A stretch of DNA of 64,000 nucleotides from Octopus vulgaris (Eukaryota): positions 99,572,001 through 99,636,000 of the forward strand of contig OX597820.1 of NCBI GenBank assembly GCA_951406725.2. Direction: 5' to 3'. The notes below the pieces were generated by a model that was given only the letters and a program-made list of their open reading frames with translations, made no database searches and was not told the origin of the DNA. The position numbers and the translations under genes were made by a program. This document shows, in pieces, positions 1,192 to 55,799 of the stretch (position 1 is the first letter of the stretch; each line of letters opens with the position of its first letter).

Positions 1192-1232
<41 letters not shown>

Positions 1233-1322
1233 TTAGAGACAAAACCACTATTTTGCAAATCAAACAAGGAAAGACTTAATCAATACATAAAAAAATTTTT
1301 TTAATATAAAGTAAATAAATCG

Positions 1323-1366
1323 CCACTACAATTGTTTCCTGTCTTCAAATGACATTCATCAGGTGG
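1323..1366 (-). ncRNA. Minimal type I hammerhead ribozyme (inverted copy of 2316-2359)
   Basis: Exact reverse complement of 2316-2359. Confidence 0.8.
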
Positions 1367-2315
1367 ATTTCGTATCTAAAAATATCAATATTTTAAAAAA
1401 TAAATAAATTTAAAATGGCTAAAACTATAAATAATATAAATTTATCAATGAAAAAATATAAAAATATATGATCCATATATAATCTATATATAATCTATAT
1501 ATAATATAATCAAGAACTAAAATAACCTCTATAAACAATTGAATATAAAGAAACCTATTATTAAAGTTCTCATATTTAAAGATGTGGTTAAAGGGAGGTT
1601 TTAACATTATATGTATATATGGGTTTCGTTTATCATGATTGTTTTATTAAAGAATTTTATAGTAAATTCTGTCTAATTACGTTTATTAACATATTATTCC
1701 ATTCTATTCCATTCATAATTTTTAAATAACGTTCGTTCATAACGCGCAGAATGAAATGTTTATATTGTTGTGGTTGAGTATATGCGGATGCTGGTTGTGT
1801 GGTTGTCATGCAGAGTGAGTGTGTTTATGAATGAGGGTTGTATGTGTGTGTGAGGGGGTATGAATAAGTAATGTGTTGAAGTATTTGGCTATTTTATTAA
1901 TTTATCGTTGCCTAGATGTTTATGTGTATGTATAGAGATATATATGGGCGTGTGAGTTAGTGTATGTATTTAGATATGTTTATATATACTTAGATATATG
2001 TGTATGAGCATGTGTGTATATATAGTTTATTTTTATTTTTGTTTTTTGTTTTTTGTTTTTTTGTTTTTTGTTTTTTGTTTTTTGAAATTAGATTCTTCAT
2101 CTTTAAATATGAGAACTTTAATAATAGGTTTCTTTATATTCAATTGTTTATAGAGGTTATTTTAGTTCTTGATTATATTATATATAGAGTATATATAGAT
2201 TATATATGGATTATATATTTTTATATTTTTTCATTGATAAATTTATATTATTTATAGTTTTAGCCATTTTAAATTTATTTATTTTTTAAAATATTGATAT
2301 TTTTAGATACGAAAT

Positions 2316-2359
2316 CCACCTGATGAATGTCATTTGAAGACAGGAAACAATTGTAGTGG
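2316..2359 (+). ncRNA. Minimal type I hammerhead ribozyme (intact core)
   Basis: CCAC-CTGATGA-A-TGTC-atttgaa-GACA-G-GAAAC-AATT-GTA^GTGG; stems I and II pair; predicted cut after 2355. Confidence 0.8.
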
Positions 2360-2533
2360 CGATTTATTTACTTTATATTAAATTTTTTTTATGTATTGAT
2401 TAAGTCTTTCCTTGTTTGATTTGCAAAATAGTGGTTTTGTCTCTAATTAATATTATATAATATTTTACTATAAAATTGGATTCAATCCTAAATCTGATTT
2501 TTCCCTGTAAATTTGGATTTATTCCCTAATATT

Positions 2534-3037: not shown

Positions 3038-3797
3038 TAATGGTTGTCCACTCATACAGAATTTGACCACCTTCTCTACCTATATCTTAGAACTATTGTG
3101 GCATCTGGTGTGGCTTTTTAAACCAGATAATGTTCTAAAGAGACACTCACGTAGATTGCGTATCCGATTTGGACCACCAAGAGCTGCAGATAAGTTCTGA
3201 TGTTTGTGGATCTTAAAATGTATTTTGAGACCTCCCTTAGATTTGCAGACCTTTTGGCATACACTGCATTCAAAAGTGTGCACAGACATAGGCAGAATAG
3301 TTGGTGGAAGTTCATTTTCCATAGGTTCGCAAATGATATTTGAACCCAGCAAAAGAAAGGCATGGTCTGTCACAAACTGTGCACACAAGAAGGTCATTGT
3401 GATTCACCTTCTCGATCGTAACATTCTTCCTTAAATCTCTTTTGAGTTTTGCATGCGTTATCCTAAACTCTTCAAACGCTTTTACTCCATTCCATACTTT
3501 CATATCGCATTTTAAACATTAAATGGAGTTCTTTTACTCCAAACACAGATGTTCTAGCATCAGCAGGCATCACCTCAATTAAAGCGATGATTTTGAGAAA
3601 CCAAATGAGATAGTGTGGTCATATTGTTCGAATGGCGGATGAACGAATGCCAAAACAGCTGTTTTATGGTGATTTTGCTGAGGGAAAACACTATCGGCGT
3701 AAGCATAAAAGAAGGTTTGAGGACGGTATAAAGACTAGTATGAAGTCACATGAAATGGATCCAGAGGACATAGAAACCCTTGCTTCGGATCGAGATG
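3038..3797 (-). mobile_element. RTE-type LINE 3' fragment with inverted 5' segment
   Basis: 3038-3520 (-) encodes C2H2-like fingers (CTVCDRPC..H, CSVCQKVCKSKGGLKIH); 3520-3797 (+) encodes the preceding [18 protein letters not shown]...ASDR region. Confidence 0.8.
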
Positions 3798-6746: not shown

Positions 6747-6798
<52 letters not shown>

Positions 6799-6805
<7 letters not shown>

Positions 6806-7050
6806 AAAGGGCTAAAAAACACTATGTGGTCAGCCATATGCTAGAAGTAGATCACCTACGATCAAACTACAAAGATCGTAGGTGATCTACTTCTAGCATA
6901 CAGCTGACCACTTAGTGGTTTTTTAGCCCTTTAAATATACACGTATTAGAATTTTCTTTGATTTTTCAGATTTTTGTATGCTAGGCTACTGGTTTTAAAT
7001 TGATATTAATTAAATTAATATTCAATTTATCTCCCTCATTATTTAAATTT
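6799..7050 (+). mobile_element. Short palindromic PLE-like terminal element
   Basis: Arms 6799-6863 / 6874-6938; tail ending ctccctcatt..(AT)n; centre at GATC-GTA. Confidence 0.6.
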
Positions 7051-7060
7051 ATATATATAT

Positions 7061-7474
7061 GGTGTAAACAGAGTTAGCGGTTATAATAACCGACAAAGTG
7101 ATAGAATATCCGTATGTTCTATTGGTATCTGTTATCCATGTTATCACTAGGCATTGGTGTGCAGGCACACTATGCACATAGAGTACAGGTAACTGCAGGA
7201 TAAAAAAGAGTTTATCTGGAAGAAAATACAGATAATCAGAAAATGAAGAAAACCTCAGATTTACAAACACATCGATTGGATCACATTTATAGCTTATTTT
7301 TTTTAATACAAAGCATGACATAACAAATAGGTGACGTAACAAATCTTGAGGAAACGGCCGTAAGATTTGTTACGTCACCTATTTGTTATGACATGCTTTG
7401 TATTAAAAAATAAGCTATACATGTATTCCAATCGTTGTGTTTGTTAATCTGAGGTTTTTTCCATTTTCTAATTA
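7061..7474 (-). mobile_element. Short palindromic PLE-like terminal element
   Basis: Arms 7233-7347 / 7362-7474; spacer contains GAAAC-GGCC-GTA; flanked by (TA)n. Confidence 0.65.
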
Positions 7475-7495
7475 TATATATATATATATATATAT

Positions 7496-7750
7496 CAATA
7501 ACAATAACAATAATATGACAACAAAAGAATGAATGAGACCTCGATATTATGTAAGATAGCGGGATTTATCTATAAATATAATTGGTTGTCATAATAAAAC
7601 TCAGAGTTTCGGATACCGGAGATGATTTCCGCTCCGGCATCTTATCAGTTATTTAAGATAAAACGTTTTGTCTTAATAACTGATGAGGTGCCGGAGCGGA
7701 AATCATCTCCGGTATCCGAAACTCTGAGTTTTATTATGACAACCAACTAG
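7496..7750 (-). mobile_element. Short palindromic PLE-like terminal element with hammerheads
   Basis: Arms 7582-7664 / 7665-7746, each containing a hammerhead. Confidence 0.7.
7675..7735 (+). ncRNA. Type I hammerhead ribozyme (GUU site)
   Basis: AATAA-CTGATGA-GGTGCCGGAG-loop-CTCCGGTATC-CGAAAC-TCTGA-GTT^TTATT; the inverted copy at 7593-7653 has core CTGATAA (G8A). Confidence 0.7.
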
Positions 7751-7905: not shown

Positions 7906-8076
7906 TATATGGGTACAGGACGCATCAGCAGTGCAAATAACTTGGAATACATAAACATGACAGTGGGGACATACAAGGAAACCGAACGAAAACAAACATA
8001 GAAGGTCGTTAGACCAGAACAAGAAAAAATAGTGAACGCTGGGAGAAACATTTCTTTTGAAAAGAGAAAAGATAGA

Positions 8077-8137
<61 letters not shown>

Positions 8138-8560
8138 GAGAAAGAAGGGAAAGATAGAAAACGGTGAAGGAAGGAGGGGAGAAAAAGGGAATTAGAGAAG
8201 GACGGAGGAAGAAAACAGTACCCAGCGTTCACTATTTTCCTCTCGTTCTGGTCGAACGACCTTCCATATTTGTTTTCGTTCGGTTTTCTTGTATGTCACC
8301 ACTGTCATGTTTTTGTTCCCAACTTTGATACTCCATAAATCCTAAATTTTATTTTAGAACTTATGGGAGCAACTGTCTTTGAGGGCTCATATTGTTGTTG
8401 AATGCTCGAAATGAGGAGTAGATGGACAACTGATGAAGGGTCCTTTCTCTGCGTTTACTTGTCCTGTTTTATATTTTTTTCTCGTTGTTTACGTAATTAA
8501 CTTGTTTGTTTATGCATTTCATGTTATTTGCCCCGTTGGTGACGCTCTGTACTCATATAT
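7902..8560. mobile_element. Head-to-head copies of a PLE-like 3'-end family (terminus ..tgtac(c/t)catatatgc(AT)n)
   Basis: Inverted repeat 7945-8043 / 8221-8320; the same terminus recurs near 25715-25735 (+) and 40952-41130 (-). Confidence 0.55.

Positions 8561-13374: not shown

Positions 13375-55799
<42,425 letters not shown>

Follow-up and report, generated by a model that had tools for sequence, protein, structure and literature searches.

5′ ends of a Penelope-like element of Octopus vulgaris pile up on one side of its predicted hammerhead cut

The locus at positions 7061–7474 of a 64,000-nt stretch of the Octopus vulgaris genome (the window; contig OX597820.1, 99,572,001–99,636,000 of the forward strand) is a two-armed insertion, in which 3′ ends of a Hydra-type Penelope-like element (PLE) stand head to head in a (TA)n tract. 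Copies of this element carry a hammerhead ribozyme motif, and the long arm of the insertion breaks off at the predicted cut or 1 nt before it. Taken singly, the junction at 7347 is no more than chance would give, but the distribution of 5′ ends across the family of this locus (F1) exceeds chance. The one-sided pile-up of these ends likely records ribozyme cutting in living cells, which the single copy cannot show. All coordinates are those of the window, and family position 0 is the first base past the predicted cut (7363 for F1); F2, F3 and F4 denote further hammerhead families present in the window.

F1 5′ ends and the predicted cut

F1 comprises several hundred arms in the genome (239 and 405 matches to two downstream anchors), and loci were fetched for 100 of the 239 and 100 of the 405 matches. 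The 3′ ends fall into two groups, +100..+125 in 121 of 255 arms and +265..+281 in 109 of 255, and many arms lie head to head, mostly a long one with a short one. The 5′ ends were mapped by profile, with a joint model for pairs, as calls on single arms over-extend into the partner arm. The first DNA search included bases upstream of the cut, which biased it towards read-through copies. Left out were 21 of the 255 arms, namely the window locus and loci found solely by this search or by one other; 193 of the remaining 234 reach +43 or further and form the test set. The cut position was fixed beforehand, while the widths of the compared intervals were chosen by the analyst; 9, 13 and 26 nt agree.

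Among the 193 arms, 57 end in 0..+25, compared with 9 in −26..−1 (p=3e-7) and 12 in +26..+43 (p=1.4e-6). Counted once per insertion the first comparison is 36 to 6 (n=148, p=6e-5), and a narrower one gives 23 ends in 0..+8 and 1 in −9..−1. Raw BLAST ends (56 vs 10) and restoration of all left-out arms (59 vs 12) give similar figures. The best step among 175 positions scanned is at position 0. Per 100 nt at risk, ends number 0.35 at +26..+43, 1.03 at +13..+25 and 1.84 at 0..+12, then 0.25 at −13..−1, 0.33 at −26..−14 and 0.2–0.5 further up. Long and short arms alike show the excess (21 vs 4 and 36 vs 5, respectively), and the pile-up thus tracks position and not length; it amounts to about 41 of 181 arms above background. 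Five junctions reach base 0 and stop there (L072, L098, L124, L170, L175), lacking the conserved A(−1); with the window locus aside, no maximal extent falls from −2 to −9, and the next ones upstream are at −10 and −11.

The preliminary description of this locus had named a sharp peak at GTA as the expected outcome and uniform breakpoints as the opposite one. The ends are not uniform (57 vs 9), and the step lies at the cut as foreseen; the ends drop off like a cliff on one side, with a shoulder of 25 nt downstream, and form no sharp peak. Besides the window locus, an exact search of the genome for close pairs yielded seven more, with ends at about +11..+25 by eye; two of the seven are a tandem duplicate, and four independent ones are new.

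Of the 44 modelled F1 pairs, 25 have both ends downstream of the cut and 18 upstream, and one, the window locus, is split. Two further split cases with very long partners (L005, L200) fall outside the pair model. This concordance is compatible with one RNA serving both cDNAs, under cleavage or stalling. Breakpoints of paired arms are also correlated upstream of the cut (rho 0.44, 58 pairs), which suggests that ordinary truncation, too, goes back to an RNA end common to both. That the first cDNA simply folded back is ruled out, since either arm may reach further upstream. No duplicate flanks were flagged among unpaired F1 arms, and identity to the mate compared with other arms gave no signal (0.878 vs 0.876, p=0.73).

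The locus, its element and neighbouring structures

The plus strand at 7348–7370 reads G7351-AAAC-GGCC-GTA7362 with AGATTTG from 7363, matching the preliminary description (GAG-GAAAC-GGCC-GTA, then AGATTTG, with the cut predicted after 7362). Positions 7351–7364 (+) make up the 3′ half of a type I hammerhead, i.e., GAAAC, a palindromic stem III containing an 8-nt palindrome (7354–7361), a GUA triplet and the 2-nt 3′ strand of stem I, with the predicted cut between 7362 and 7363. CUGAUGA and stem II are absent from this copy, the hammerhead of 7061–7474 is incomplete, and an Rfam scan of the window gave nothing at gathering score. The full motif is found elsewhere in the family: both upstream parts, on whose existence the preliminary description had made its proposal depend, are carried by other F1 copies, and the whole motif (CUGANGA, stem II, GAAA and NUH in order) is kept in 34 of the 89 arms that reach −112.

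The long, tail-bearing arm (7061–7347, minus strand) spans family positions −1/0 to +281, with its 5′ end at the predicted cut and its 3′ end at the far reverse-transcription start. The tail, found on this arm only, occupies 7061–7232 (−; about +119..+281) and may match the stretch between the two reverse transcriptase (RT) start sites of Frangieh et al. (2024, PMC11167929). The short arm (7348–7474, plus strand) runs from −16/−15 to about +112–118 and spans the cut site. The arms meet head to head at 7347 with 1 nt of microhomology and no filler, and both terminate in (TA)n, the long one at 7061 and the short one at about 7474, where target remnants are left at 7049–7060 and 7473–7495. Complementarity is 98% between 7299–7347 and 7362–7410, and 87% between 7226–7302 and 7405–7481. 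The span first given to the insertion (7233–7474) was therefore too small, the long arm extending to 7061 (+281).

Read on the minus strand from 7347, the long arm begins AAGATTTG, as had been noted; its alignment with the plus arm starts at 7362. The claim that it starts at the cut holds to within 1 nt: T7347 fits either as the complement of A17 (−1) or as the plus-arm base at −16, a T in the family (45 of 49 aligned matches), and the joint model for paired arms gives the long-arm start a posterior of 0.48 for −1 and 0.40 for 0, with the short arm starting at −16 or −15.

In longer F1 copies, CUGAUGA is followed by an unpaired A and by a stem II of 10 bp with a long loop; a purine then precedes GAAAC, GGCC and GUA, and a stem I of 2 bp completes the motif. 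Stem II has two alternative pairings, in two lineages. In the 34 whole motifs, stem I consists of U-A (29/34) and C-G (33/34) with the third position unpaired, and the stem III palindrome has the GGCC insert in 20, the remainder showing single changes. The ribozyme is predicted to act as a dimer via this palindromic stem. One F1 lineage has GUAAC in place of GAAAC yet has been amplified (29 of 136 read-through arms; L017, L028, L030, L102, L178, L199 and others).

Broken RT, linker and GIY-YIG pieces lie about 1.7 kb upstream of the F1 hammerhead on the same strand; in L275, open reading frame (ORF) remnants at 3–1790 and the family end at 3588–3705 share one strand. A CxCx5C linker, as well as CxxC and CxH around a conserved E and N, can be read in translated pieces of L282, L275 and L200, and some motifs are presumably those of an RT. 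The GIY-YIG Pfam match (E=0.03) is below the cut-off, seven of eight ORF pieces have no match, and an Atlas lead adds weak database support (RVT_1 in 13% of one cluster). Weak piece by piece, these remnants point to a PLE of the Hydra clade, with an RT followed by a C-terminal GIY-YIG on the hammerhead strand.

Abutting the locus in the same TA tract is an unrelated head-to-head insertion (7497–7749) whose own hammerhead has its core at 7680, a stem I of 6 bp and a GUU triplet. Further inverted repeats lie within 1 kb at 6791–6946, which is (TA)n-flanked, and at 7949–8316, making four such structures in 1.6 kb. F4 hammerheads with a 2-bp stem I and palindromic stem III form an inverted pair at 32361 (−) and 34381 (+), enclosing a broken transposase reading frame which we take to be of mariner type. 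Hammerhead-like motifs of other families are found at 41507, 27485, 42232 and 53322, that at 27485 in an inverted joint.

Cleavage weighed against other causes

Roughly a quarter of F1 arms were probably copied from RNA already cut by the ribozyme, the cDNA running off the cleaved template. The other families bear on this to differing degrees. F4, with one pair only, is uninformative for the cut. Of 155 close F2 pairs, 49 were analysed; the most-upstream arm ends at −2..+1 in 15 of these and at −7..−3 in none, and the arms ending at −2..+1 had copied through all of stem I. In two near-identical F2 pairs (L323, L334), an unrelated hairpin filler of 33 nt lies between arms that both end at −1/0. 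F3 is larger (3956 anchor matches in the genome), and its ends number 37 vs 5 among 101 arms and 22 vs 3 among 63 loci.

Of 44 truncated F3 arms, 21 were not scorable; 13 of the other 23 repeat the (ATTT) next to the +6 edge 4–7 times, as do none of 51 scorable read-through arms; three read-through arms with the expansion were found genome-wide, a count that has no denominator. Arm L266 retains +1..+5 ahead of the expanded repeat. The repeat unit in truncated arms follows each subfamily's own sequence (window 1227–1400 (−) and 2290–2447 (+); L202–L271). The reiteration looks like telomerase-style synthesis or templated end-joining. A separate cluster of F3 ends lies about 60–98 nt upstream; its arms carry a different 5′ piece (19 of 28 classed arms). 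F3 copies have two distinct upstream pieces, which diverge immediately past an AG that follows a T-rich run (L213, L224, L232, L264, L267 and others). These are likely the unspliced and spliced forms, the spliced one marking a promoter-made 5′ end, judging from parts of PMC2377424 and PMC4209133. As the upstream cluster is likely promoter-made, the F3 start site would not be at the cut.

Several observations weigh against cleavage as the cause. The F3 edge is at +6, with none of the 37 calls in 0..+5 (p=0.003), and just nine F3 matches genome-wide end in −8..+2, with no peak at 0. The preset test failed in F2 (11 vs 8, p=0.65) because seven calls fall at −1/−2, and a palindrome at +1..+8 confounds that family. 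In F1, stem I has 2 bp only, and 31 of 34 copies leave positions 10.1/11.1 unpaired. The F1 excess is confined to inverted pairs and is not seen in unpaired arms, where the counts are 9 vs 5 (p=0.43). The short arm of the window locus runs 15–16 nt upstream over the cut, the sole discordant pair of the 44 modelled; at least one template there was uncut, and two RNAs are needed if cleavage made the long arm. Frangieh et al. (PMC11167929) saw no RNA-seq reads ending at the cut of their element, and cleavage was not needed in vitro.

The T89/A107 lineage of F1, in which 24 of 34 read-through arms have GUAAC, also piles up (11 vs 34, against 31 vs 64 in the other lineage; Fisher p=0.43), although a requirement for an intact core in cis would predict only 2.6 (P=8e-5). 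The GUAAC change is presumably inactivating; a literature search on the A13U change returned nothing relevant. Trans-cleavage in a dimer, a tolerated change or a cause other than cleavage is needed to explain this lineage.

The strongest competitor, itself rather unlikely, is that the RNA was intact and the RT stalled at a folded (dimeric or protein-bound) hammerhead, the stalled cDNAs then being joined. It accounts more simply for F3, which stops just outside a GC-rich stem I with ATTT reiteration, and for the GUAAC lineage, and the 8-bp intermolecular stem III of F1 ends at −2, near enough to mimic the edge. However, the stronger, unimolecular 10-bp stem II of F1 gives no stall, no pile-up being present at its 3′ side (4 events in −13..−1). 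F2 copies read through the whole of stem I before ending at the cut, where a stem III of only 4 bp would stand, and the five F1 junctions that end at 0 do so without A(−1). A stem I that is cut but undissociated would explain F3 as well. On the proposal in the preliminary description that the cDNA began at a ribozyme-made 5′ end, the family pile-up speaks in its favour, while for the long arm of the window locus itself cleavage as the cause stands at about even odds, with stalling still in contention.

Local sequence bias (microhomology at +6..+15) or a single ancestral master hairpin is very improbable and largely refuted. The near-palindrome at +6..+15 lies at the centre of several joints, inverted pairs alone show the excess, and F2 has its own palindrome, but the perfect 8-nt palindrome at −9..−2 has the top microhomology score and no joint is centred on it; microhomology potential is 11.6 at −13..−1, where ends are rarest, compared with 5.3 and 3.6 downstream. 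The listed junctions all differ, both F1 lineages contribute pile-up arms, and long arms are not set apart from short ones (identity 0.869 vs 0.872), which together argue against any single master. Least probable of all is that a transcription start or other processing (splicing, host nuclease) set RNA 5′ ends near the cut: Penelope pseudo-long terminal repeats have an internal promoter as well as an intron close to the hammerhead (parts of PMC2377424 and PMC4209133), but three unrelated families have edges within −2..+6 of their own predicted cuts, the distinct upstream cluster of F3 resembles a promoter-made end, and the Drosophila Penelope start lies 46 nt before an intron that ends at stem I, and so upstream of the ribozyme.

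Proposed mechanism and relation to known systems

A Penelope-like protein would nick both strands of a (TA)n tract, in line with the two-strand action in PMC11167929, and one cDNA would be primed at each of two start sites (+~115 and +281). Both cDNAs would run toward, and off, the RNA 5′ end, lose 0–25 nt and be joined through short microhomology. For most copies the RNA end would be random, and for about a quarter the ribozyme would have made it. At the window locus, the short arm would come from uncut RNA and the long arm from a second, cut RNA or from a chance stop; in F3, the cut RNA would still be held in a longer stem I. The two-strand, two-start behaviour is drawn from PMC11167929, and the remaining steps are what we infer.

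Element type, inversion and ribozyme are already known from related systems. As described in passages of Craig et al. (2021, PMC8557442), insertions of Hydra-clade endonuclease-positive (EN+) PLEs have an inverted 5′-truncated copy at the 5′ end, a one-sided tail and a (TA)n target. F1 shares these features, together with the C-terminal GIY-YIG, the CxCx5C linker, CxxC/CxH around E and N and a hammerhead near the 3′ end, and differs in its tail (about 165 nt vs 30–40) and its 3′ non-coding region of about 1.7 kb; those passages draw no link between where copies are truncated and the cut site. The F1 hammerhead resembles the Drosophila virilis type in parts of Cervera and De la Pena (2014, PMC4209133), with a 2-bp helix I, a bulged long helix II with an unpaired 5′ base, a palindromic helix III and a predicted dimer; unlike that type it has a loop II of about 65 nt, an extra purine before GAAA, a 4-nt palindromic insert and the GUAAC lineage.

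F1 is also like the Poseidon element of Anolis (PAc; PMC11167929), in which both strands are cut and extended, two RT starts bound the tail, targets are AT-rich and the hammerhead is protein-assisted; the related protein cuts the two strands, makes use of two RT start sites and, in vitro, activates its hammerhead. In PAc, uncut RNA is the main template and reads at the cut are lacking, whereas about a quarter of the genomic arms here seem cut-limited. The nearest precedent, from passages of Eickbush et al. (2013, PMC3774820), is R2's HDV-like ribozyme (HDV, hepatitis delta virus), whose cut position is mirrored in genomic 5′ junctions, which vary and are primed by microhomology if the cut coincides with the end of the element; there the ribozyme sets the full-length 5′ end, unlike F1, where a non-coding 3′ fragment of 120–280 nt results, linked to a second cDNA. 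Animal non-LTR retrozymes (LTR, long terminal repeat) share a type I hammerhead and a link to Penelope elements (parts of PMC7229834 and 10.64898/2026.07.22.740005). F1 was considered as one and rejected: the fetched loci have no tandem hammerhead units or sign of circles, and F1 has its own ORF remnants upstream. A literature search that did not cover Lunse et al. 2017, Arkhipova et al. 2017 or the supplements of PMC11167929 (including Fig. S2) found no paper reporting PLE 5′ ends at a hammerhead cut.

The question at stake is whether, inside cells, cutting takes place at the weak hammerheads that animal Penelope elements carry (PMC4209133, in part; PMC11167929). According to PMC4209133, in vivo evidence of PLE hammerhead cleavage does not exist, and these ribozymes barely cleave in vitro; in the one reconstituted system (PMC11167929) cleavage proved dispensable, and in vivo cleavage is treated as a hypothesis in parts of PMC6765202. 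Thousands of genomic joints record template 5′ ends, making the question testable family by family without RNA, and the contrast between the F1 and F2 edge at the cut and the F3 edge at +6 with repeats is one that could serve at the bench to tell cleavage from stalling. Tentatively, Penelope hammerheads may cut in the germ line, probably as dimers that can also cut a dead-core partner, and the released 3′ fragment may often serve as template, accounting for between a quarter and a third of two-armed insertions. If a longer stem I keeps the cut ends paired, as in F3, the telomerase-related RT would treat the helix as a template boundary and add short repeats.
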